Source: an uncultured bacterium (GTDB lineage: Bacteria; Acidobacteriota; Vicinamibacteria; Vicinamibacterales; UBA8438). Taken from it: a stretch of DNA of 64,000 nt. Positions 3-60,066 of this stretch are shown piece by piece. Made by a program: the position numbers and the translations under genes. The DNA lies in assembly GCA_963934795.1 (NCBI GenBank), contig CAWWAF010000006.1, positions 1,757 through 65,756 on the forward strand, in the 5' to 3' direction. How positions within the stretch are numbered: position 1 is the stretch's first letter; each line of letters starts with the position of its first letter. The notes under the pieces are model-generated. The model made no database searches. It had not been told where the DNA came from and saw only the letters and a list, made by a program, of their open reading frames with translations.

Positions 3-899
3 GCACCTCCACCCGTGGAATTTCAGGAGTTCGGCGCCTGGACCATCGAGCCGGATCTCATTGTGACCTCTCCGCCGCACACCGTGCCGGCCGAGGCGGG
101 CGACTGGTGGGGCGACTACATTGTGCCCTCGGGGCTCGAGAGCGACCGATACATCCAGGCCATCCAGACGAAGGCTGGCGATCTCCGGGTCGTACATCAC
201 GCGTTGACCTACGCGGTGACGGACCCTGATGCACCGCTGGCAGACAGCTCTGGCGATGCGTTTCTGAACGAATACGCGGTGGGAAAGAACGGCGATGTCT
301 ATCCCGAGGGTACGGGCCGGCTGATCGAAGCGGATTCGCGGGTGCGATTCAGCTTTCACTACCACTCGGTGGGTGAGGAAGTCACCGATCAGACCGAGCT
401 GGGCTTCGTGCTCTACCCTGAGGACTACGAGCCGGACCATATCCTGTATTCTCGTCAACTCGGTGCGGCTGGCGAGCTCGACATCCCGGCCGGTCAGGTG
501 ACTCGTCACGACGGTTACCAGAAGATGTATCTGCCTGGGAAGCTCACGGCGTTCCAGCCGCACATGCATTTTCTTGGCACGCGTCAATGTGTCGAGATGA
601 TCTATCCAAACGGCTCGACGGAGATGGTCAACTGTGCCAACTTCGACTTCAACTGGCACATTGTCTACAACTACGAAGAGGACTCCGCTCCGGTGTATCC
701 GGCCGGCACGACGATGCACGTGATCAGCTACCACGACAACACGGCGGGGAATCGTGGCAACCACGATGCGAAGAACTGGACCGGTGGTGGTGCCCGGACG
801 GTCGACGAGATGGCGTTCTCCTGGCTCAGCTGGCACGATTTGACCGAAGAAGAGTATGCCGCCGAGATCGAAACTCGGAAGGCCGATGAAAACGACTGA
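3..899 (+). CDS. PHM/DBH-like (type-II copper monooxygenase ligand pattern) periplasmic protein, 5' end outside window; paralog of 58510..60066
   Basis: Frame is open from nt 3. Collinear with the C-terminal ~290 aa of the 518-aa ORF at 58510..60066. Shared motifs: DWWG, DRY, HH, FHYHS/VHLHS, PHMHFLG/PHLHAPG, NW..Y.YE, DNT.GN, NW.G.G. GC-rich third codon positions. Confidence 0.8.
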   Translation, partial: APPPVEFQEFGAWTIEPDLIVTSPPHTVPAEAGDWWGDYIVPSGLESDRYIQAIQTKAGDLRVVHHALTYAVTDPDAPLADSSGDAFLNEYAVGKNGDVYPEGTGRLIEADSRVRFSFHYHSVGEEVTDQTELGFVLYPEDYEPDHILYSRQLGAAGELDIPAGQVTRHDGYQKMYLPGKLTAFQPHMHFLGTRQCVEMIYPNGSTEMVNCANFDFNWHIVYNYEEDSAPVYPAGTTMHVISYHDNTAGNRGNHDAKNWTGGGARTVDEMAFSWLSWHDLTEEEYAAEIETRKADEND

Positions 900-967: not shown

Positions 968-1043
968 CGGTTGGGCCGATATGGGGAATACCGCGGTTCG
1001 CCACGACGTGTGGTCCGCTGAGTAGGGGAAGCGGGAGGTGAGC

Positions 1044-2018
1044 ATGAGAGTTGTCAATCGCCGGGTTCAGCAGACGACATTGGTTGGTGTGGTTGCGCTC
1101 TGTGCGCTGGGCTCCGCCGCGACGGTGGCGGCCCAAATCAATGCTCGCGATGTGCCCCTTGTGACCCAGCCTCAGCAACGCTTCCGTTCGGGGCAGGATA
1201 TTCAGCCGATCTTTGAGGGTTGGAGCGGGAACGATGACGGGAGTTATACGTTTCATTTCGGCTACCTGAACCGGAACTACGCCGAGCGGCCGACCGTGCC
1301 AATCGGGGCGGAGAACTTCTTTTCACCAGGCGAACCGGATCGTGGGCAGCCGGCCTATTTCTATCCGCGGATAAACCGCTATCAGTTTGAGGTGGTCGTG
1401 CCGGCCAGCTTTCCCCAGGACGGCGAACTGGTATGGGAGGTGACGACCCACGGCAGCACCCAATATGCGTATGGTTGGCTGCAATCAGAGTGGGAGATCG
1501 ACGTGAATACGATCACGTCGAACAATCGCACCTCGTTTGGCAGAGGGGTGGACCAACTCTATGGGAACGGATGGCCGTCGGTGACCGTCAAGGCCAGCCA
1601 TGCGTCAGTCAGCGTGGGCCAGCCGGTCACGTTGACCGCCATGATCACGGATGACGACCTCCCAGACCCCGTCGACGAGCCTGACCCGAACGCACCGCCG
1701 CGGCGCCGCGACCCGACGCTGGTCGCGCCCGAGGGCTCGCCAGAGATCCCGGACAACATCCCCCAGTACACGAAACCTGCTCCCCCTCGAAATCACCTGT
1801 CCGTGCGGTGGCTTGTGTATCGAGGCCCGGCTGACGCCACATTCGAGCCGAACGACTACAGGAAGTGGGAAGAGGGGATGGAGGGCGATGGCTGGACATC
1901 GGCGACGGTTGACTCGACGGTCACGTTCGACGAGCCGGGCACGTACATGGTACGTGCGTTCGCCAGCGATGCCATGCTCATCACGCACGGTAACGTCACG
2001 ATTACGGTGACCGAGTAG
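1044..2018 (+). CDS. Secreted beta-rich protein with C-terminal Ig/PKD-like domain; partner of the PHM-like gene; paralog of 57515..58513
   Basis: ATG 1044 lies 6 nt after GGGAGG. Signal peptide ends ...AATVAAQ. Alignable with 57515..58513 through FEGW..DGS..F.FGY.N.N, GQP..F.PR.NR..F.V.VP..F, W.VYRG..A.F.P and TFDEPGTY..R..ASD. Confidence 0.8.
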   Translation: MRVVNRRVQQTTLVGVVALCALGSAATVAAQINARDVPLVTQPQQRFRSGQDIQPIFEGWSGNDDGSYTFHFGYLNRNYAERPTVPIGAENFFSPGEPDRGQPAYFYPRINRYQFEVVVPASFPQDGELVWEVTTHGSTQYAYGWLQSEWEIDVNTITSNNRTSFGRGVDQLYGNGWPSVTVKASHASVSVGQPVTLTAMITDDDLPDPVDEPDPNAPPRRRDPTLVAPEGSPEIPDNIPQYTKPAPPRNHLSVRWLVYRGPADATFEPNDYRKWEEGMEGDGWTSATVDSTVTFDEPGTYMVRAFASDAMLITHGNVTITVTE

Positions 2019-3650: not shown

Positions 3651-5660
3651 CTACTCTCTGAGGAACAGGCCACGCTGATCCCGTTGATCGAAGAGTCGCC
3701 GCATGGCCTCCACTCGAGGCAGGCCTTCGGGGCCGACCAGCAGTTCGGGGTCGCGTCGTTGCCTGGCGCGTGGATCAGCACGCCAGGCCTGTATCAGGCG
3801 TACCGCGACGTCGACGCGCTCCGCTTCGGGGGCCACGAAATCATACGAAAGACCGGAGTACCCGGGCAAGCTCCGAAGTGAGCGCGCCGCAATAAACCGC
3901 ACCGCTTCGTACTGATCGCCCAGCGCCTCCGCCAGATGGGGCGTCATCCAGCTTGTTCCCGACGCGTCCTGGGCCGGGCCCCACCCCATCGCGTCTGCGG
4001 TGATCGCTCGCAGGCCGGCGTCGCCCCGCAGCATCCATAGCACGCCGGCGGCGACGGTACGGTCGTCGTCGTCCAGCGATGGCGCCGGTGTGTCATACCA
4101 CTCGTCGAGACGGTCCGCCGTCCACGCGACCGTCTTGTCCAGGTGGCAGAGGTTGCACGCGTTCGGGCGGCCCAATGCCACGGACTCCGTGGCGGACGGG
4201 CTGCTGACCGTGTGGCTCCGCATCGTCTTCAAGAGCCCGTAGCTGGTGTACGGCATGTGGCAGTTGTAGCAGCGACTCCCGGTCGAGCCGGTCGCGTGCC
4301 GGGTATGCGCGGTGACCTGGTCGGCCATCGGTTCGTGACACTGCAGGCACGCCTGGTCCCCTTGCCCGTTCGTCGACACCTGGTGGGTGTCCGCCCATTC
4401 CTCGATCGAGCGGGTATCTTCGCCCGGTTTGTGCATGTCGTGACAGGAGAAGCAACTCAGCGTGCGGTCCGCGTGCGTGGCGTCCCTGAAGCATGGGGAG
4501 TCCAGGAGTCCGTTGTACTCCCGTCCGGATACGCGAATCATGCCATCAGGCCAGAACGAACCTCGCACAAATTCAGGGTCCGCCTCGATAAGGGCGGACA
4601 TCGCCGCGGACGTACCGTCGAGCGAGGGTTGCGCGACGAACCGATTGTCTCGGAGCTCATCTCCCGGTCGGTACGGCAATCCGGCGACATTGGCACGTCG
4701 TTCGCCGGCCTGGTCGTAGAACTCCCACACGCTGTGACATTGCCCGCACACCTGCGACGATCGCTGTGGATCGAGTCTGGTCGGCAACACGATGGTCGGG
4801 TCGCCGTCCGGTTCGCCATCCTGCCGCTGACCAAGGTGCCTTGCATACCGCCGAAGAGGATTTCGGTTTGCTTCGACGTGAGCCTGTCCGGGGCCATGAC
4901 ACGACTCGCACGAGATGCCGAATTCGGCCACCGTGGTGTCCATGGTCTGGGAGTCGAACGGTTCAGAACGGTATGGTGTGTCAATCGCGGTCTTGCCCTG
5001 TGTGGTGTGACACGCGATACAAATCGCGTTCCAGTGGCCGTTCAACATTGCCAGTGTTTGTCCCGGCGGATGCAGCACCAACGCGCTGCGGGGGACCCAT
5101 CGCTGTTCCTTCAGCAGATAGGCCGCCGGCAGGACGTTGAGGGCTCGGTTTCGACCTGTCGCATACCAGTAGACGTTCTGGTGATGAGACCCCGTGATCA
5201 TGACCACCTGGCGCCTGATTCGCGGGCGGGCGTCCGGGGCACCCTCCCATCCGGGGTCGTCGAACTCAGCCCAGAAGTCGTTACCGTCACGGCTCAGGAG
5301 CATCGGGGCGCCATGGGCATCCTCGACTCGCACGTCGTCGAAGTCGGCCCGTACGGTCTCGGGGGTCGGCACCTGCGTCATCGTGCGATGGAACGAGCCG
5401 TACCAGCTCGCGTACTCCGTCGGATGGCACGCCTGGCACGTGTCTGAGGACACGTACCCGTCCGCGTCGAGCTCAACAGGGCGGTTGGTGATCTGGGACT
5501 CGGGAACCGGGCGGTCAAGCGAGAAGACGGCTGTGAGCCCCAGGGCGGCGGCGGCAGCCAGGAGCAGCAAGATTGGGAGGTCGGTCCGGATGCGATGCGC
5601 GAAGGTTGGGGCGGCGGGGTCGCGAGGCGACTCCTGTCGACGTCCGCGTCGTGCGGTCAT
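3651..5660 (-). CDS. Octaheme c-type cytochrome with C-terminal HEAT-like repeat region
   Basis: Eight CxxCH motifs: CQACH, CIACH, CESCH, CGQCH, CFSCH, CLQCH, CYNCH, CNLCH. N-terminal hydrophobic anchor LPILLLLAAAAALGL. C-terminal heme-free ...AVRFIAARSLRSLPG... repeats. Start moved to ATG 5660 (MTARRG...) because the longer track ORF overlaps gene 5794..6438. Confidence 0.85.
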   Translation of the reverse strand: MTARRGRRQESPRDPAAPTFAHRIRTDLPILLLLAAAAALGLTAVFSLDRPVPESQITNRPVELDADGYVSSDTCQACHPTEYASWYGSFHRTMTQVPTPETVRADFDDVRVEDAHGAPMLLSRDGNDFWAEFDDPGWEGAPDARPRIRRQVVMITGSHHQNVYWYATGRNRALNVLPAAYLLKEQRWVPRSALVLHPPGQTLAMLNGHWNAICIACHTTQGKTAIDTPYRSEPFDSQTMDTTVAEFGISCESCHGPGQAHVEANRNPLRRYARHLGQRQDGEPDGDPTIVLPTRLDPQRSSQVCGQCHSVWEFYDQAGERRANVAGLPYRPGDELRDNRFVAQPSLDGTSAAMSALIEADPEFVRGSFWPDGMIRVSGREYNGLLDSPCFRDATHADRTLSCFSCHDMHKPGEDTRSIEEWADTHQVSTNGQGDQACLQCHEPMADQVTAHTRHATGSTGSRCYNCHMPYTSYGLLKTMRSHTVSSPSATESVALGRPNACNLCHLDKTVAWTADRLDEWYDTPAPSLDDDDRTVAAGVLWMLRGDAGLRAITADAMGWGPAQDASGTSWMTPHLAEALGDQYEAVRFIAARSLRSLPGYSGLSYDFVAPEAERVDVAVRLIQAWRADPRARQRRDPELLVGPEGLPRVEAMRRLFDQRDQRGLFLRE

Positions 5661-5793
5661 GTCGTAAGGCCGGGAAGGGCACCTGGCTTGGGCCGCGACC
5701 GGGCGCGCAGACGCTGCGCCCGGTCGCGACACACGTATTTGGCTCGTCAGCAATGCAGTGCGCGGATCTGCTGACCTGGATGAGGCGGTGACG

Positions 5794-6438
5794 TTAGTTA
5801 CCCGCGAAGCAGTAGAAATAGCCGTTTCCGCCGGTCGCCTGGAGGTTCGCCTGGCTGCAGCCGCGCGAGCCGTGTGCCGAATTCCAGGAGGCCGGGTTGG
5901 CACCACCACCGGTCCGATCGAAATGTCCGACCAGTGCGCTGCCGGCGCCGTCTGCGTTCGACGTCCAGTTACTGCAGGTGCTGTCGTCGCTGCCCGAGAC
6001 CGCGGTCCCGTCCAAATAGGACCCCGTCAGAATATCGTGCTGGTTCGGGTCGTCACCCCGCCCGTTCGTCATGCCGCCCTTTTCATTCAGGACGCTTTCC
6101 TTCGTCAGCAGGTTCTCGAAGTGCAGCTGGTCGATGCTGCTGGCCACGACGTCGCCTGCGACGTTCTGCCACGGACCTGCGCCGATACGGTCACGCGCGT
6201 TGACGCCACCCGAACCGGTGGTGCTGAGATACGCGCGCCAGGTCTTGCCGCCGGCCCCGACCGCAGCCGCGAGTGACTGGCAGTGCGCGTCCGCGCCCGA
6301 AAGACCGCCGAGGTTGGCGCCGTCGCCGGATCCCACGCTACTGAGGAAGAAGGTCATGTCGGCGGCTTGTGCGAAGACCGGCGATACGCTCAGCCCAGAA
6401 ATCAGCGCGGCGGCGCCGACAAGTTGAAAAATTCTCAT
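5794..6438 (-). CDS. Secreted endostatin/DUF1554-like (C-type-lectin-fold-like) protein; paralog of 54652..55410
   Basis: AAGGAG lies 8 nt upstream of the ATG. Signal peptide ends ...PVFAQA. Motifs GGLSGADAHCQSLAAAVGAGGKTWRAYLST, DSTCSNWTS and C-terminal GYFYCFA resemble the collagen XVIII endostatin domain as I remember it. Confidence 0.7.
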   Translation of the reverse strand: MRIFQLVGAAALISGLSVSPVFAQAADMTFFLSSVGSGDGANLGGLSGADAHCQSLAAAVGAGGKTWRAYLSTTGSGGVNARDRIGAGPWQNVAGDVVASSIDQLHFENLLTKESVLNEKGGMTNGRGDDPNQHDILTGSYLDGTAVSGSDDSTCSNWTSNADGAGSALVGHFDRTGGGANPASWNSAHGSRGCSQANLQATGGNGYFYCFAGN

Positions 6439-53357: not shown

Positions 53358-54521
53358 ATGTCGAAGCAGACCACCCGTCGTGAAGTGCTCAAGGGCGGCG
53401 CCGCCATCGCTGGGCTCGGGGCGCTCGGTTTTCCTCAATGGGGGCTGCCGGCGTTGGCCCAGGGAGAGATGCTCGTCGAGTTCACCGACTTGCCTGACGA
53501 GATCGTCCTGGAGCGGACCCCGGACCGGCGGATCATCGAGGTTCGGGACATCGATGGACCCATTACACCGGCGAACAAGTGGTTTACGACACAGCACTAT
53601 GGGCACCCGGTCATCGACCGTGCCACCTACAGGTTGCGCGTGTCCGGCTTGGTCGACTCGCCGCTCGAGCTGTCGCTGGCTGATCTCCGGGCGATGCCCA
53701 GTCGGGAATTGGTCTTTGGCTTCGAGTGTTCAGGGAACCGAGGTCCGCAGAACGGTCTGTCGAGTAACGGTCGATGGACCGGCGTGTCGCTGCGCACCGT
53801 CCTCGAGCGTGCGGGTATCCAGGACCCCGCCAGCGAGTTCGTCTTCTTCGGGGCTGACCGCGGCGAGGAAGAGGTTGATTTTCGCGGTCGTACCACGACG
53901 GTGGAGCAGCAGTACGGCCGGAGTCTCAGGCGGCACGTCGCCCTGTCCGACGAGCCGATGCTGGCCTACGCGCTGAATGGCGATCCGCTGACCATACATC
54001 AGGGGAGTCCGCTACGACTGCTGGTGCCCGGCTGGTATGGCGCGCCGAACGTCAAGTTCCTCTCTGAGATTCATGTTCAGGAAGATCAGTATCTTGGGAA
54101 GTTCCAGGCGCGGCACTATCGAACGCTGAAGGGCGAAATGGTCAACGGCGAGATGAAGTGGAAAGAGACCGGCATCTCCAAGATGAGGTTGAAGTCCTAC
54201 ATCGCCCGGGTGACCAAGATGGGGAACCAACACAAGGTGTTCGGCGTGATCATGCACGACGGGACACCGATTCAGTCCGTCGAGGTGCGTATCGACGACG
54301 GTCCCTGGCAGCCGGCGACACTTGACCCGTCCACGAGCGAAAAGTACTCGTGGAAGTTCTTCAGCTACGACTGGAACGGCGCGACTCCTGGCGAGCACAC
54401 CGTGACGTCGCGGGCTACCGATACCAGTGGCTATGTGCAGCCGACATCTGAGGAACTCGAGGTCAAGAAGACCTTCCTCGAGCAGAACAATCAGCATCCG
54501 CGCACGCTGATCATCGCGTAG
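53358..54521 (+). CDS. Sulfite-oxidase-family molybdopterin oxidoreductase (SorA-like) with Tat signal
   Basis: TRREVLKGGAAIAGLGALG, FGFECSGNRG (Mo-ligand Cys context), LLVPGWYGAPNVKFL, and a C-terminal dimerisation-type beta domain. Confidence 0.8.
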   Translation: MSKQTTRREVLKGGAAIAGLGALGFPQWGLPALAQGEMLVEFTDLPDEIVLERTPDRRIIEVRDIDGPITPANKWFTTQHYGHPVIDRATYRLRVSGLVDSPLELSLADLRAMPSRELVFGFECSGNRGPQNGLSSNGRWTGVSLRTVLERAGIQDPASEFVFFGADRGEEEVDFRGRTTTVEQQYGRSLRRHVALSDEPMLAYALNGDPLTIHQGSPLRLLVPGWYGAPNVKFLSEIHVQEDQYLGKFQARHYRTLKGEMVNGEMKWKETGISKMRLKSYIARVTKMGNQHKVFGVIMHDGTPIQSVEVRIDDGPWQPATLDPSTSEKYSWKFFSYDWNGATPGEHTVTSRATDTSGYVQPTSEELEVKKTFLEQNNQHPRTLIIA

Positions 54522-54651: not shown

Positions 54652-55410
54652 TCAGTCAATCGCAAAGCAATAGAAGAGCCCGGCGCCGCCGGTCGCAATG
54701 AGATCTTCCTGTCCGCAGCCGCGGGAGGGATGCTCCGAGTTCCACGAGTTGATGCCGTCACCGCGGCCGATCCGGTCGTGGTGTCCGACCATGGCGCTGC
54801 CCTCGCCGCCAGACGTCCAGTTCCCACAGGTGCGGTCCTCGCCGAGTGGGAACGCCGTCCCGTCCGGTTGTGACCCGGTCAGGATATCGTGCCGATTCGG
54901 GTCGTCGCCCACGCCGTTCACCGGGTCAAGGCGCTCGGTCGTCGCCCGCTCCTTGTTCACATTGTTGTCGTCGCTGTGCAGGGCGTCGACATTGGCCGCG
55001 ATGAGCAGCGCCTCGGCGTTGTACCAGGGTCCGGCGCCAATGCGGTCGCGTGCGTGCACCGCTGATTCGGTCTCCGTCGCCGAGGTGCTCAGATACGCCC
55101 GCCACGTATGGTCACCGGCATATTCCGCCTGAGCGAGCGCCTGGCAGTGGGCGTCTGCTCCCGCAAGTCCCCCCAGTTCACCGCCGGTTCCCGGGCCGAC
55201 GCTGGTAATGAAGAAGGTGGTGACCGACTTGGCGCCACCCATCTCGATCATGTCCGGCACGGTTGGTTCGGGATCCGTGTCTGGCATCGCGGCCTGAGCC
55301 TGAGCCGCGGACTCGGGGGGCGGAGCCTCGGCCCCCGCGCACGCGACGGCACCAACGGATAGCAAGCAGGCGAGACCGACGAGGGCCGGTCTACGTGTGA
55401 GGTGTCTCAT
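54652..55410 (-). CDS. Secreted endostatin/DUF1554-like protein; paralog of 5794..6438
   Basis: AGGAGA upstream of ATG 55410. Lipoprotein-like signal LSVGAVAC. GGLAGADAHCQALAQAEYAGDHTWRAYLST, DRTCGNWTS, LFYCFA. Confidence 0.75.
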   Translation of the reverse strand: MRHLTRRPALVGLACLLSVGAVACAGAEAPPPESAAQAQAAMPDTDPEPTVPDMIEMGGAKSVTTFFITSVGPGTGGELGGLAGADAHCQALAQAEYAGDHTWRAYLSTSATETESAVHARDRIGAGPWYNAEALLIAANVDALHSDDNNVNKERATTERLDPVNGVGDDPNRHDILTGSQPDGTAFPLGEDRTCGNWTSGGEGSAMVGHHDRIGRGDGINSWNSEHPSRGCGQEDLIATGGAGLFYCFAID

Positions 55411-55548
55411 CTGAGTTCTCCTGTCCGGTATGGTGCCCGTGGCCTGCGGTCGCGTCAACCCTCACTCGTGGCTCGCGGGGTCAGACGTATAATCGCATCA
55501 CTCTTCATCTTGTCGAGGCAGGATTCGGAACGGCAGAGGAACCAGCGA

Positions 55549-56247
55549 ATGGAACCGAAACGATTCTTGATTACCGGGGGCAGCCAAGGCATCGGAGCGG
55601 CGCTGGTAGGCTTGGCACGCCGTGAGGGGCACACCGTGGTCTTTACGGGCCGACACGAGGAGACCATCGCGCCGGTGGCCAGCGAGACGGGCGCCGTCGG
55701 GGTGACGGCCGACAGTCGCGTCGAGGCTGACAACGCGCGCGTCATCGAGATCTGCCAACGACAGATGAGCGGCATCGACGTCCTGGTGAACAATGCCGCC
55801 TCCTGGTATGACGCGGCCATCGGCGAGTTGGACATGGACGCCATGCGCCGCCTGTTCGACAGCAACGTCTTTGGCATGGTGGACTTGACCAACCGTGTCG
55901 TGCCTCTCATGAAGGCGCAGCAGCGAGGCGACATCGTCAACCTCTCGTCAACGTCAGGGACGAAAGGACGCAAGCTCGGCACCGCCTACGCGGCCAGCAA
56001 GTGGGCGGTGCGCGGCATCACCCAATGCTGGCAGGCTGAGCTGCGCCCACACAGTATTCGCGTGGTGAGCATCTGTCCCTCCGAGGTCCAGACCCGGTGG
56101 GGGGGCCGTGACGGGCGAGACAATCCGAACAAGCTCTACGCGGTCGACGTCGCCCAGACGATCATGGCGGCGCTTGCTATGCATCCCCGGGCGTTCTGGC
56201 CGGAGTTGTCGGTGTTTGCGACGAACCCGTGGAAAGAAGAGTCATGA
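55549..56247 (+). CDS. SDR family oxidoreductase
   Basis: ITGGSQGIGAAL, NNAA, YAASKWAV. AGAGGA upstream of ATG 55549. Confidence 0.85.
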   Translation: MEPKRFLITGGSQGIGAALVGLARREGHTVVFTGRHEETIAPVASETGAVGVTADSRVEADNARVIEICQRQMSGIDVLVNNAASWYDAAIGELDMDAMRRLFDSNVFGMVDLTNRVVPLMKAQQRGDIVNLSSTSGTKGRKLGTAYAASKWAVRGITQCWQAELRPHSIRVVSICPSEVQTRWGGRDGRDNPNKLYAVDVAQTIMAALAMHPRAFWPELSVFATNPWKEES

Positions 56248-57470
56248 CAGCGAGACCCAGACCTGACGCCAGTGCGTGCCTGGCCACACTCGGGGTGTGG
56301 TTGGCTGTGACCGGGACCGCCATCGCGCAGCCGCCCCCCGGACTACCGCCGCTACCGTTGCCAGACGGGCCCCGCGTGTTCGATACCGCGGAGCATCCCC
56401 AGGTGCGGCTCGTGGTCGTGACGCGTGGCCTGTCACACCCGTGGGGGCTCGCGTTTCTGCCAGACGGGCGTCTGCTCGTGACCGAGCGTGACGGCCGCCT
56501 GCGTGTCATACGGGACGGCGTGCTGGACCCCCAGCCGGTGTCAGGCGTGCCGGACGTGCACACGCGCGGGCTGGCTGGCCTGATGGACGTGGCCATCCAT
56601 CCGCAATTTGCTGAGAATGCCTGGGTATACCTCACGTACTCCAAGCCGATGAGGCCGTCTGAGAATGACGAGGTGCGGGTGGCGCTCGCGCGCGGCCGAC
56701 TCGAGGGGTCGGCGCTTCGGGACGTCCGCGATCTCTTCGTCTCGGATCCAGTTGGCGGGGGGGGCACCGCCGCCTCCCGCGTGGTTTTCGGCCGGGACGG
56801 CACGTTGTTCATGACCGTGGGTGGAGCGTTTGGCGCCAGCGCCGGGGGCAGGCGCGCGCAGGATCCTGCCAACACGATTGGCAAGCTCGTGCGGCTGGAC
56901 GACGATGGGGGCATCCCTGACGACAACCCTTTCGTCGGGCAAGACGGCTTTCGCCCCGAGGTCTTTTCGTCGGGCCATCGGAATCAGCTGGGTTTGACCG
57001 TCCACCCCGACACTGGAGCGATCTGGGCCCACGAGAACGGGCCGCAGGGGGGCGATGAGGTGAACCTGATTCGCGCCGGTGCCAACTACGGCTGGCCCGT
57101 GGTGTCCCACAGCCGCGAATACTCGGGTGGGAGGGTGGCGGCGCGAACCTACGCGGAGGGGATGGCACCGCCAGAGATCGTCTGGCTGCCGGCCATCGCG
57201 CCGTCGGGCATGGTGTTCTACGACGGTGACCGCTTTCCAGGATGGAAGGGCAATTTGTTCGTCGGGGCGCTCAGGATCGGCAGCATCCGAAACACCGGGC
57301 ATTTGCAGAGGATCGTGTTCAACGAGGAGGGACAGGAAGCCCGGCGCGAGTCCCTCCTGACGGAGCTGCGACAGCGGATTCGTGACGTCCGCCAGGGACC
57401 GGACGGCCTGCTCTATGTGTTGACAGACGCGGACGAGGCCGCGCTGCTACGGCTGGAGCCGGTCGACTAG
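56244..57470 (+). CDS. PQQ-dependent sugar dehydrogenase (soluble aldose/sorbosone dehydrogenase family)
   Basis: ATGA overlap with the SDR gene. Signal peptide. LSHPWGLAFLPDGRLLVTERDGRLRVI, SGHRNQLGL, HENGPQGGDEVN, NYGWP. Confidence 0.85.
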   Translation: MTARPRPDASACLATLGVWLAVTGTAIAQPPPGLPPLPLPDGPRVFDTAEHPQVRLVVVTRGLSHPWGLAFLPDGRLLVTERDGRLRVIRDGVLDPQPVSGVPDVHTRGLAGLMDVAIHPQFAENAWVYLTYSKPMRPSENDEVRVALARGRLEGSALRDVRDLFVSDPVGGGGTAASRVVFGRDGTLFMTVGGAFGASAGGRRAQDPANTIGKLVRLDDDGGIPDDNPFVGQDGFRPEVFSSGHRNQLGLTVHPDTGAIWAHENGPQGGDEVNLIRAGANYGWPVVSHSREYSGGRVAARTYAEGMAPPEIVWLPAIAPSGMVFYDGDRFPGWKGNLFVGALRIGSIRNTGHLQRIVFNEEGQEARRESLLTELRQRIRDVRQGPDGLLYVLTDADEAALLRLEPVD

Positions 57471-57514: not shown

Positions 57515-58513
57515 CTATGGGGTGACGATCACCGTGACGTCACCGTCCACGCCCAAGGCGCCGTCAGACGCGAGACAGCGCAACACGTAGGTGCCGGGTT
57601 CATCGAAGGTCACCTCGACGTCCCAGGTGTCGTCGTCGGGAAGTGGCGGTGGGTACCAGTAGTTGGCCCAGGGCGAGTTCGCATGCACCCGGGTGTCTTC
57701 CCATACTTTGATCTGTTCTGGCGAGAAGGTGACTGCGCCTTCGCCGCGATAGACGTACCACGACACACGCAGTCCGGTCGCGCTGCCAACGGTGATCTGG
57801 CGTGGTTTCATCCACCCGGCCGGAACGTCAGCTGCAGCTCGACCAAATGGGCTGGTGCTTCGGCGCGGCTCCGTGGCCTTGGGCACGCCATCGTCGGTGG
57901 CGACGGCCGTCAGGCGCACCGGCTCGCCCACTCGGACGGTGCGGCGGTCGACGGGGCCTTCAACCCGCAGCGTTGGCGCCAGGTTGGCCCGAATGGCCGG
58001 GTTGGTCGTGCCGGCTCCGATAGCGCCCTGCTCGGAGGCTTTGATCAGTCCATCAACCCGGTAGTCGAGCCTGAGCGAGGCGTAGGCACTGACCGTGGTT
58101 CCGTTCGCGGTCAACGTCCAGATGACCTCGTCCGCTTCTCTGAAGTCCTCGGGTACGGGGACCCGGAACACGAATCGGTTGCGGCGGGGGAGGAAACGGG
58201 TCGGCTGTCCCTGGTCAGCGACGGCGGCGTCAAAGGCCGCTGGGTCCGCGCCCCCGCTGCCAGCGGCGCCCAGGACAAAGTAGTTGTTCGGGCCGACCGG
58301 CACATTCGGCTCCTGCTCCCAGTTCGCGTTCATGTAGCCGAACAGGAAGTATAGGGAGCCGTCCTCCTCCTCCTCCCACCCTTCAAAGGCGGTCGACACT
58401 GGTTGTTCGGAGCGGTAGCTCAGCTGGGCATCGGCGTCGGGCGCACAGAGCGCTATCGCCGCCAGGATGCCAAGCGCCGCAGTCAGTGTGGGCCGATTGG
58501 TCGCGTAGCTCAC
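57515..58513 (-). CDS. Secreted beta-rich protein with C-terminal Ig/PKD-like domain; partner gene of cassette copy 2
   Basis: GTGA overlap with the upstream gene. Signal peptide ends ...APDADAQ. Collinear with 1044..2018. Confidence 0.8.
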   Translation of the reverse strand: MSYATNRPTLTAALGILAAIALCAPDADAQLSYRSEQPVSTAFEGWEEEEDGSLYFLFGYMNANWEQEPNVPVGPNNYFVLGAAGSGGADPAAFDAAVADQGQPTRFLPRRNRFVFRVPVPEDFREADEVIWTLTANGTTVSAYASLRLDYRVDGLIKASEQGAIGAGTTNPAIRANLAPTLRVEGPVDRRTVRVGEPVRLTAVATDDGVPKATEPRRSTSPFGRAAADVPAGWMKPRQITVGSATGLRVSWYVYRGEGAVTFSPEQIKVWEDTRVHANSPWANYWYPPPLPDDDTWDVEVTFDEPGTYVLRCLASDGALGVDGDVTVIVTP

Positions 58514-60066
58514 TGTTGCTGCCCGCCCTGTTCTTGCCCACCCTGCGCGTCGGCCTCAGCTCTGGCTTCCGCGGCCGCTTCCTCGGCTTTGTCGAGCGAA
58601 ATCTGGGCGGCCGCCAGCTTTTTCTCGGCCGCCGCGGCCTTGGCATCGGCGGTCAGTTCTTCAGGAATGACTTGGCAGAGCGGGCACCCGATGATGTGGT
58701 CGTTGCGCGTGACATTGTGCAGCTCGCGGCGCTCGTTCATCGCCTCCTGAAACTGCTCGTCCGACATCGAGACGCCATTGCCCAGGTCGATGAACATGTT
58801 CGACACAGACCGGTTGCCGGAGCCTTGCCAGTTGCGTGGGTCGGGGATGTTCTTGTTGCCTTCGGTGTTGTCCATCTCCCCGGTGATGTGGAGGATGGTG
58901 CCCTTTGGCAACAGCGGCTCATAGCCGTGCTCATACTGGTAGCCACGCACCCAGTTGTGGTCGTATCCCGCGCACGTCAGCGTTTCAACGTTGATCCCCC
59001 AGATCGCTTCCAGGCACATCCGCGCGCCTGGGGCGTGCAGATGCGGCTCGAATGTGGTGATCTTGGTGTTTTCAGGCAGCACATAGTAGGCGTGCAGTTC
59101 CTGGTTTTTCTTGTTCGCCTGAATGTCGATATCCACGCCGTTGCCGAGAGGTCGTAGCGACCACCGGAACTTCGGCTCGTAGCCCTCCGGCTGGAAACGC
59201 CACCCGATTTCCAGGTGCGACTTGGTGTCCTTGCCGTTCGAGTGCAAGTGGACCGAGTCGGATACCACCTTGGCGTTGGCGTGCAGTAGCGGGGAGCCAT
59301 CTGGATCGAACACATCCGCGTTGCGGCCGACCTCGTGGACGGGCCAGAACGACGCCGCGCTCGGGCGACCGTCGTCGCCAATGACCTGGGTGCTCCAGAT
59401 CATGTGGTGGAAGACGAACCGTCCACCGACTGTCTCGCGCGAGTCCTCGGTGTCCAGGACGTCGTTGACCTCTCGAATTTCTACCGACGCGACATACCGA
59501 TCGGTCGGGATGCCCACGTCAACCGGCGCGATTTCGCCCCACCAGTCGGGGGCGTCGCCGGCCATGATGAGATCTTCTGTCACGGTGATGAGATCGGGCT
59601 CGCCAGCCGTCCAGAGTCCCGCGCCGCCAACCGGTTTCAGTGGCGGCATGTCGGCGGGATTACCCCGCGGGGCGCCGTTGTCGGCCCAGGCCGCCATTTT
59701 CGCCACTTCCTCGTTACTCAACGACGGATCAAATTGATATGCCTGGATGCCGATGTTCTTCTCGACATACCACGGGGGCATGACGCCGGCCACCGGGCCC
59801 ATCCCCGTCCGCATCTTCATGGCGCGGGCCCAGGGGCGTGCATCTTCATAGGTGATCAGCGACATGGGCGCCACGGAGTCGGGCTGGTGGCAGTGCTGGC
59901 AGCTGCGCTGCAAGATCGGCGCGATGTCCTTCGTGAAGGTCACCTCGTCGTGATCGGCCGGTGCGCTTTGCCCGGCCGAACCGGTGGCAGGGAGCGCCAG
60001 GCTCACGGCCACCAACAGTGCTCCGAACAGACTCGACTTCACGTGATAAAACTGGTGCGATCTCAT
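58510..60066 (-). CDS. Cytochrome c (PSCyt1-like) fused to a PHM/DBH-like copper-monooxygenase-pattern domain, with C-terminal CxxC and Ala/Glu/Gln-rich tail
   Basis: Signal peptide. FTKDIAPILQRSCQHCHQP ... MPPW. Then FHHM, VHLHSNG, PHLHAPGARMC and SNMF in the order HH..HxH..HxH..M. Tail CPLC...AAAEKKLAAAQISLDKAEEAAAEARAEADAQGGQEQGGQQQ. Confidence 0.8.
   Translation of the reverse strand: MRSHQFYHVKSSLFGALLVAVSLALPATGSAGQSAPADHDEVTFTKDIAPILQRSCQHCHQPDSVAPMSLITYEDARPWARAMKMRTGMGPVAGVMPPWYVEKNIGIQAYQFDPSLSNEEVAKMAAWADNGAPRGNPADMPPLKPVGGAGLWTAGEPDLITVTEDLIMAGDAPDWWGEIAPVDVGIPTDRYVASVEIREVNDVLDTEDSRETVGGRFVFHHMIWSTQVIGDDGRPSAASFWPVHEVGRNADVFDPDGSPLLHANAKVVSDSVHLHSNGKDTKSHLEIGWRFQPEGYEPKFRWSLRPLGNGVDIDIQANKKNQELHAYYVLPENTKITTFEPHLHAPGARMCLEAIWGINVETLTCAGYDHNWVRGYQYEHGYEPLLPKGTILHITGEMDNTEGNKNIPDPRNWQGSGNRSVSNMFIDLGNGVSMSDEQFQEAMNERRELHNVTRNDHIIGCPLCQVIPEELTADAKAAAAEKKLAAAQISLDKAEEAAAEARAEADAQGGQEQGGQQQ

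Follow-up and report, generated by a model that had tools for sequence, protein, structure and literature searches.

Do bacteria possess copper monooxygenases of the PHM/DBH type, and, if so, from which donor would such enzymes obtain their electrons? To our knowledge, these enzymes are treated as essentially eukaryotic and ascorbate-dependent. PHM, DBH and TBH, the noncoupled binuclear copper monooxygenases, are textbook animal enzymes; in animals, enzymes of this class make noradrenaline and amidated hormones, and their mechanism is debated with regard to the electron passage over ~11 Å between the coppers and to the opening and closing of the domains. The question is raised by a pair of genes in a stretch of 64,000 nucleotides (referred to as the window) from contig CAWWAF010000006.1 of assembly GCA_963934795.1, an uncultured bacterium of the Vicinamibacterales (Acidobacteriota). 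A preliminary description of this sequence had proposed that the pair encodes a PHM/DBH-like copper monooxygenase fused to a cytochrome c together with a secreted partner protein. The reading that we prefer, held with slightly more confidence than doubt, is that of a periplasmic, haem-c-fed, two-subunit copper monooxygenase acting on a substrate other than a glycine-extended peptide. What is new is not its catalytic core, which is of a known type, but the haem built in as electron input and the obligatory accessory subunit.

The enzyme gene (58510..60066) encodes 518 aa and is followed by the gene of the secreted partner (57515..58513; 332 aa), both on the minus strand as are all features of the pair given below. 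The enzyme reading frame ends with ...CAG CAA CAG TGA, and the GTG start codon of the partner overlaps this stop codon by 4 nt (GTGA; 58510..58513), exactly as described before. A Shine-Dalgarno-like AAGGGG is located 6 nt 5' of the enzyme ATG; promoter and terminator scans found no signal. Both genes are real, since each of the two open reading frames (ORFs) has thousands of relatives: for the enzyme, with closest homologs at E=0, more than 7,800 among 90%-identity clusters, and for the partner more than 4,800. Among 50%-identity representatives, the enzyme matches 14,005 sequences at E≤0.001, the weakest of which may cover the cytochrome domain only, 8,044 at 1e-10 and 1,567 at 1e-30. The enzyme starts with a predicted Sec signal peptide (aa 1-31; 59974..60066; cleavage between GSA and GQ), which was recognised by inspection from a basic N-terminus, a hydrophobic core and an AxA-type site. 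It is followed by a monohaem c-type cytochrome domain (aa ~40-135; 59662..59949), by a two-domain PHM/DBH-like copper module consisting of a CuH-like (aa ~150-295; 59182..59619) and a CuM-like β-sandwich domain (aa ~296-450; 58717..59181), and by an Ala/Glu/Gln-rich C-terminal tail (aa 465-518; 58513..58674). Residues 473-509 of this tail were modelled as a single long helix, and the homologs vary here without a consensus (alignment A1). All motifs quoted in the preliminary description, i.e., FTKDIAPILQRSCQHCHQP, MPPW, FHHM, VHLHSNG, PHLHAPG and SNMF, are found in the enzyme.

The structure prediction was decisive for the assignment of the copper module to the PHM/DBH fold. An AlphaFold2 (AF2) model of the enzyme was obtained from a 60-sequence alignment, with a predicted local distance difference test score (pLDDT) of 78 overall and below 50 for aa 1-36, and a predicted template modelling score (pTM) of 0.75. 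In the Foldseek comparison of this model with the PDB the top 27 matches were all DBH or PHM, each with a probability of 1.00, which bears out the predicted fold. The best match was human DBH (4ZEL; E 3e-8), and ~25 entries of rat PHM matched with E 8e-6 to ~2e-4. PNGase F, a non-copper member of the PHM fold superfamily, was found only among the weaker matches (E 2e-3 to 6e-3). Based on this shared fold and on the lack of a direct Cu2_monoox match of the window protein in Pfam, the PHM-like module might be regarded as a non-catalytic or non-copper β-sandwich, such as a PNGase F-like glycan binder, joined to a cytochrome. This seems highly improbable, as the Foldseek scores for PHM/DBH lie several orders of magnitude above those for PNGase F and as the six ligand positions discussed below find their counterparts in PHM and persist in relatives with 31-98% identity.

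The relation to PHM/DBH can also be followed at the level of sequence profiles. The relative P0472, which shares 36% identity with the window enzyme (E 3e-79), reaches 24.2 bits against PF03712 (Cu2_monoox_C; gathering cut-off 23 bits), and other relatives show sub-threshold matches to PF01082 and PF03712. The expectation that these two families would be recognised was thereby borne out above the cut-off for PF03712 in a relative and failed for the window protein itself, which matches neither of them. Furthermore, a diverse family profile of 44 sequences, taken from 50%-identity representatives, was aligned by hhalign with the catalytic cores of PHM and DBH, which had been checked against the PDB (4E4Z, 4ZEL). 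The resulting alignment comprises 243 columns over both domains (E 7e-5, probability 63%, score 39.7), while the scores of 40 column-shuffled targets averaged 14.2 ± 2.3 and did not exceed 19.9, no more than 41 columns being aligned, and the reversed target scored 15.5. This full-length alignment was obtained once DBH had joined PHM as target. With PHM alone the same profile gave a weak local match, in which the CuM register was correct, and the low-diversity profile A1 gave nothing, its best local match (probability 0.09) mis-pairing VHLHSNG with the CuM HxH of PHM.

The hhalign register places all six candidate copper ligands on the matching domains. For the CuH site, H220/H221 correspond to H107/H108 and H273 to H172 of PHM; for the CuM site, H342/H344 correspond to H242/H244 and M424 to M314. 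The ligand order of PHM and DBH that had been proposed thus stands in all six positions, with the correction that the third CuH ligand is H273 and not H275; H273 is the better conserved of the two in the most divergent set. Conservation was determined for 234 full-length relatives with 31-98% identity to the window enzyme. H220 is retained in 229 of these, H221 in 230, H273 in 231, H342 in 233, H344 in 232 and M424 in 231, and all six occur together in 226, in line with the conservation anticipated in the preliminary description. Judged from these residues, both sites are likely to bind copper. Moreover, three histidines without a ligand counterpart in PHM are conserved, namely H275 (224/234), which makes a second HxH out of the motif in the CuH domain, H393 (223/234) and H244 (211/234, otherwise Tyr). 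In the CuM-like domain a C351/C365 pair is conserved as well, and so is an NWxGxGxR loop that immediately precedes M424.

One position speaks directly to the substrate. PHM R240, which binds the C-terminal carboxylate of the glycine-extended peptide substrate, corresponds to Glu340 in the window enzyme, and the relatives have E in 210, Q in 17 and R in only 3 of the 234 sequences. The window enzyme is therefore not peptide-amidating. As a summary, it can be assigned with good support to the copper type II monooxygenase superfamily; an assignment to the functional families of PHM or DBH is not supported, since R240 is absent, a DOMON domain is lacking and the proposed electron donor is a different one.

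Next to the copper module, the N-terminal cytochrome domain is conserved throughout the family. The CxxCH motif (C56-x-x-C59-H60, aa 56-60; 59887..59901) and the candidate axial ligand Met96 within MPPW (59779..59781) are each present in 233 of the 234 relatives. The domain shows the features of a class I c-type cytochrome, i.e., CxxCH, a distal Met and a signal peptide as judged by inspection. In Pfam it matches Cytochrome_CBB3 weakly (E 0.015, 16.1 bits compared to a cut-off of 27 bits) and PccH with E 0.16; in the relative P0317 Cytochrome_CBB3 is found above threshold with 37.1 bits. The earlier label of a planctomycete-type (PSCyt1) module had to be abandoned, because PF07635 gave no match at E≤1 in Pfam and the likeness exists at the level of motifs only (FxKDIxPIL...CxxCH...MPP). 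The conservation of a covalently fused haem c domain suggests that a protein-based electron donor is used instead of ascorbate. The one-electron ascorbate couple and His/Met-ligated c-type haems have similar potentials, so that a haem c in place of ascorbate is chemically reasonable. Electron transfer from a cytochrome to a copper oxygenase has a precedent in CDH and LPMO, and in the cytochrome c-fused NirK a haem c is wired to a two-copper enzyme.

The latter example leads to the main rival of our reading. The haem c might donate electrons to copper sites that reduce a small inorganic oxidant (O2, H2O2, superoxide, nitrite or NO) without hydroxylating any organic compound, the protein being a terminal reductase or a detoxifying oxidase on a PHM scaffold. 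The arrangement of a haem c and two coppers resembles cytochrome-fused NirK, the PDB contains PHM entries with bound nitrite, azide, CO or dioxygen, in relatives such as P0317 the module is joined by AhpC/TSA peroxiredoxin and thioredoxin-like domains, and no conserved substrate-supply genes are present beside the pair. However, the enzyme retains the full PHM-type His3/His2Met set and the two-domain cleft. The strictly conserved accessory subunit with its many invariant polar and aromatic residues and the long invariant loop beside M424 suggest a larger ligand, and the several diverged paralogous pairs per genome fit better to a diversification of substrates. Weighing both sides, we consider the reduction of a small oxidant unlikely, though worth keeping in mind.

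The partner protein consists of a signal peptide, an N-terminal β-sandwich domain (aa ~33-165; 58019..58417) and an Ig/PKD-like C-terminal region (aa ~178-332; 57518..57982). The N-domain contains the invariant motifs EGW, FGYxNxN and DxGQPxxFxPRxNR and no invariant His, Cys or Met (alignment A2); the polar and aromatic nature of the invariant residues suggests that it binds a ligand or a protein rather than a metal. The AF2 model of the partner (pLDDT 75) yielded in Foldseek generic tandem Ig-like folds only, with probabilities of ~1.0 and low TM-scores, and all its PKD and Big matches in Pfam are sub-threshold. In the paralogous partner introduced below, PKD reaches 21.8 bits (cut-off 23.5 bits), and weak PKD matches occur in 15 of 56 homologs. 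A profile search of the PDB with the partner gave no match. The DOMON-like accessory role that had been offered as a speculation was not upheld, as neither Pfam (56 homologs) nor the PDB nor Foldseek gave a DOMON signal in sequence or fold, the N-domain not having been searched alone.

The coupling of partner and enzyme is strict. It was determined for 77 enzyme genes from GTDB representative genomes whose downstream sequence extended over at least 1.1 kb, and a partner homolog is located directly downstream on the same strand in 75 of them, confirming the synteny that the preliminary description had anticipated. In a sister subfamily, to which P0472 and P0317 belong, an adjacent partner homolog of 160-281 aa was found upstream or downstream of the enzyme at 4/4 loci, in two of which the partner gene lies upstream and overlaps that of the enzyme by 4 nt. 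Moreover, both proteins also occur as fusions. The order enzyme followed by partner is found in P0259 (19-member cluster) and P0262 (6-member cluster), each derived from more than one data source, and partner N-domain followed by enzyme in P0261 (L082 8001..10094), P0268 and P0375. The latter order reverses the usual operon order, which excludes a read-through artefact. In P0261 the enzyme is flanked by the partner N-domain on one side and by the PKD-like C-terminal part of the partner on the other. The enzyme has the partner as its obligate companion. Among the partners of the sister subfamily, the shortest (160-168 aa) correspond to the N-domain alone (hhalign probability 98.7%, E 2.9e-16) and lack the Ig/PKD region; as the N-domain is also the part that is fused to the enzyme, these ~130 aa are the conserved accessory unit and the Ig/PKD part is optional. 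The ~130-aa domain constitutes a new, unnamed protein family.

The strict one-to-one pairing with co-diverged paralogs could alternatively mean that the partner is itself the substrate, the enzyme hydroxylating or cross-linking a residue in its conserved N-domain; members of the PHM family do act on peptides. The stable fusions in both orders fit better to a permanent complex, though, the carboxylate-binding R240 of PHM is replaced by Glu340, and the partner ends with ...VTP and not with Gly. This makes a substrate role of the partner very unlikely in our view.

Taken together, the haem-fed copper monooxygenase that we prefer might operate as follows. The large subunit would be exported via its Sec signal peptide, most likely to the periplasm, and would carry one covalently bound haem c attached at C56-x-x-C59-H60 with Met96 as sixth ligand. 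Its PHM/DBH-type core would comprise two β-sandwich domains with one mononuclear copper each, 'CuH' (H220, H221, H273) acting as electron-transfer site and 'CuM' (H342, H344, M424) as O2-activating site. The haem, which would replace ascorbate, would take up electrons from respiratory-chain carriers of the periplasm and pass them on via CuH to CuM, where O2 would be activated and a C-H bond of the substrate hydroxylated in the interdomain cleft. The small subunit would bind to the enzyme via its ~130-aa N-terminal β-sandwich, which probably aids substrate binding or the architecture of the active site, the Ig/PKD-like C-terminal part being an optional add-on.

The pair had been reported to occur twice within the 64 kb, and a diverged second copy is indeed present at the edge of the window. 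The paralogous enzyme gene (3/15..899, plus strand; 31% identity, E 1e-44), in which the motifs VHHA, FHYHS, PHMHFLG and DEMA were all found as described, has lost its 5' part to the window edge, and its partner gene follows at 1038..2018 on the plus strand (326 aa; 32% identity, E 2e-47). The missing part corresponds to the region of the signal peptide and the haem domain. Since P0255, the nearest full-length relative of the truncated paralog (53% identity), contains a signal peptide and CxxCH, the window-edge copy almost certainly carries a haem domain too. The identities of 31% and 32% between the copies indicate old paralogs and not a recent duplication, and each enzyme paralog is paired with its own diverged partner. 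Such units often occur several times per genome in Vicinamibacterales and related groups, which are common in soils and oceans; the closest genome match, with 97% identity, is a marine Arctic metagenome-assembled genome (MAG) of the Vicinamibacterales (Acidobacteriota). Tandem arrays were observed with three pairs in L072 (1..10216) and two in L003 (1520..8618). At L049 (3335..7326) a diverged pair precedes an enzyme gene that lacks a partner, and at L039 (5866..9376) an additional, seemingly frameshifted partner copy is present. Variation is also seen in domain composition. In P0317 (1251 aa; L083 4171..7926) two PHM-like modules are joined to AhpC/TSA peroxiredoxin, thioredoxin-like and cytochrome c domains, with further AhpC/TSA proteins and a PSCyt1/PSCyt2/PSD1 protein encoded beside it, and P0321 (1064 aa) contains two modules and EF-hands.

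In public databases the members of the family are named 'hypothetical protein', 'mono/diheme cytochrome c family protein', 'cytochrome c' or 'thiol-disulfide isomerase'. A literature search, with subscription journals largely outside the literature searched, yielded no publication dealing with PHM-like or haem-fused members in bacteria. Some proteins of the sister subfamily are already annotated with PF03712 and PF13442; the combination of haem and Cu2_monoox is therefore visible in databases, though unremarked.

The genomic neighbourhood of the pair was analysed by all-against-all clustering of the ORFs from 81 loci. No third gene is conserved beside the pair at these loci, the top non-pair cluster reaching 11 of the 81. 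This cluster comprises TonB-receptor-like outer-membrane barrels of ~1,000 aa (CarboxypepD_reg and OMP_b-brl_4; among others L057 4898..7915, L034 2765..5806 and L063 2639..5710), which are encoded within 6 kb at 11/81 loci by clustering and 12/81 by BLAST and adjoin the pair in ~9, in varying orientation. The receptor may serve in substrate import, and a glycan or peptide imported by a TonB-type receptor is a possibility for the substrate at these ~9-12 of 81 loci. Similarly, dehydrogenases dependent on pyrroloquinoline quinone (PQQ) are encoded within 6 kb of the pair in ~8/81 loci, and one is encoded directly upstream of the fused P0261 (L082 5840..7744). Both kinds of neighbours are leads and not parts of the system.

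In the window itself, a PQQ-type glucose/sorbosone dehydrogenase gene (GSDH; 56229..57470, plus strand; E 2e-121) is convergent to the partner gene, from which 44 nt separate it, and the same neighbour is present at the locus of the 97%-identical MAG (L002). The uracil-DNA glycosylase (UDG) gene is divergent from the pair. For none of the window neighbours (GSDH, SDR, UDG, NIPSNAP), all of which are convergent or divergent to the pair, a functional link was found. As there is also no conserved third gene, the pair is a stand-alone bicistronic unit. A multihaem c-type cytochrome of 752 aa (3651..5909, minus strand), with matches to Cytochrom_C552, MtrC/MtrF-like, Cytochrome_C7 and Paired_CXXCH in Pfam, could be a periplasmic electron carrier; it is encoded 1.6 kb from the paralogous pair, and nothing ties it to this pair. 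A molybdopterin-binding, sulfite-oxidase-like oxidoreductase (Oxidored_molyb; 53358..54521, plus strand) is encoded 3 kb from the pair, adjoined by the gene of a DUF1554-like secreted protein (54652..55458, minus strand). At two loci of the sister subfamily the gene of an AbgT-family transporter (PF03806) lies immediately 5' of the genes for a small partner and an enzyme (L084 3916..5481; L085 1925..3496); the two genomes are related, so this adjacency may represent a single event. Scans of the entire 64-kb window revealed neither tRNA or tmRNA genes nor any Rfam family at gathering threshold.

The dehydrogenases and the multihaem cytochrome close to the pair bear on the direction of electron flow. 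If this were reversed, the copper module would oxidise a substrate and the haem c would feed the electrons into the respiratory chain, resulting in an energy-conserving periplasmic oxidoreductase. Periplasmic dehydrogenases with a fused cytochrome c are common, and some loci, as well as the window, have PQQ dehydrogenases and a multihaem cytochrome in the vicinity of the pair. Nevertheless, no PHM-fold enzyme is known to act in this way, a CuM site with His2Met ligation is tuned to activate O2, and PQQ neighbours are restricted to ~8/81 loci. We therefore regard a reversed flow as improbable.

Several points weigh against the reading as a haem-fed copper monooxygenase. The link to PHM/DBH was drawn from a predicted structure, an alignment of profiles and a transitive match. 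The Pfam scan of the window proteins gave no Cu2_monoox match (PF01082/PF03712) at E≤1, the NCBIfam scan of four window proteins gave no copper-monooxygenase match and nothing useful, and sequence searches of the PDB with the single protein and with profile A1 gave nothing relevant, the output being noise alone, i.e., the low-complexity tail of HSP90 and a weak cytochrome match. Moreover, the AF2 model of the enzyme has a pLDDT of only 49-71 at the CuM loops (aa 341-350 and 411-430), and the conserved H275, H393 and H244 suggest that the metal sites may differ from those of PHM or may be elaborated relative to them. The relatives fused to AhpC/TSA and thioredoxin domains hint at peroxide/thiol redox chemistry rather than hydroxylation. 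Finally, the Pfam, PDB and Foldseek searches revealed no recognisable functional fold in the partner, and no conserved substrate, copper-chaperone or dedicated redox-partner gene is found nearby at the 81 loci.

A bacterial version of these enzymes would be of use in several respects. If true, the built-in haem donor would make electron injection triggerable and spectroscopically traceable, ascorbate would not be intrinsic to the chemistry, and the origin of the copper chemistry of this fold would be pushed back into bacteria. No member of this very large family has been characterised, and the substrate of the family could reveal an unrecognised oxidative step in environmental carbon or nutrient cycling. 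The ~130-aa partner domain, inherited strictly together with the enzyme, represents a new family with a testable role. A far-reaching extension would be a large and ancient bacterial branch of PHM/DBH, haem-wired to the respiratory pool and working as an obligate heterodimer, that oxidises imported organic compounds in the periplasm of Acidobacteriota and Gemmatimonadota that abound in soils and oceans. This extension is tentative and in our judgement rather doubtful. If such a haem-wired bacterial branch exists, it would represent a new system of oxidative enzymes in the periplasm, with relevance to carbon turnover.

Among known systems, PHM, the catalytic core of PAM (PDB 1PHM, 1SDW), is among the closest. 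It has the same two-domain β-sandwich fold as predicted for the window enzyme, the same ligand positions in the same order and domains (HH...H, then HxH...M), and it is likewise secreted into an oxidising compartment. However, the sequence identity is ~12% and the window protein has no Pfam match; PHM is an animal enzyme using soluble ascorbate, whereas the bacterial enzyme has a fused N-terminal haem c in its place, an obligate accessory subunit, Glu340 for R240 and the additional His275 and His393. DBH, tyramine β-hydroxylase and MOXD1 share the copper-ligand pattern, and this group includes the top structural match (PDB 4ZEL; E 3e-8). DBH furthermore has an extra β-sandwich module beside the core, the DOMON domain, which invites comparison with the partner N-domain. 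In contrast to the partner, which is usually a separate polypeptide without similarity to DOMON, the DOMON domain is N-terminally fused and belongs to a defined family, and DBH contains no haem.

Other systems resemble the pair in the wiring of their electrons. The cytochrome domain of CDH and bacterial c-type donors supply LPMOs and thereby provide a functional analogy only, in that a protein haem feeds a copper oxygenase; the folds are unrelated, LPMOs contain one histidine-brace copper, and donor and oxygenase are separate proteins. Three-domain NirK covalently joins a haem c to an enzyme that has an electron-transfer and a catalytic copper, but NirK is a trimeric protein of the cupredoxin fold with T1/T2 copper sites, unrelated to the fold of PHM. 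Clear homologs are found in the sister subfamily (e.g., P0472 and the AhpC/TSA-fused P0317), which is uncharacterised and named 'cytochrome c', 'thiol-disulfide isomerase' or 'hypothetical'. It differs in that some of its members match PF03712, which the subfamily of the window enzyme does not, and in its shorter partners (160-281 aa) upstream or downstream of the enzyme, and it shares the architecture of haem c and PHM-like module, the ligands and the adjacent gene for the partner domain.

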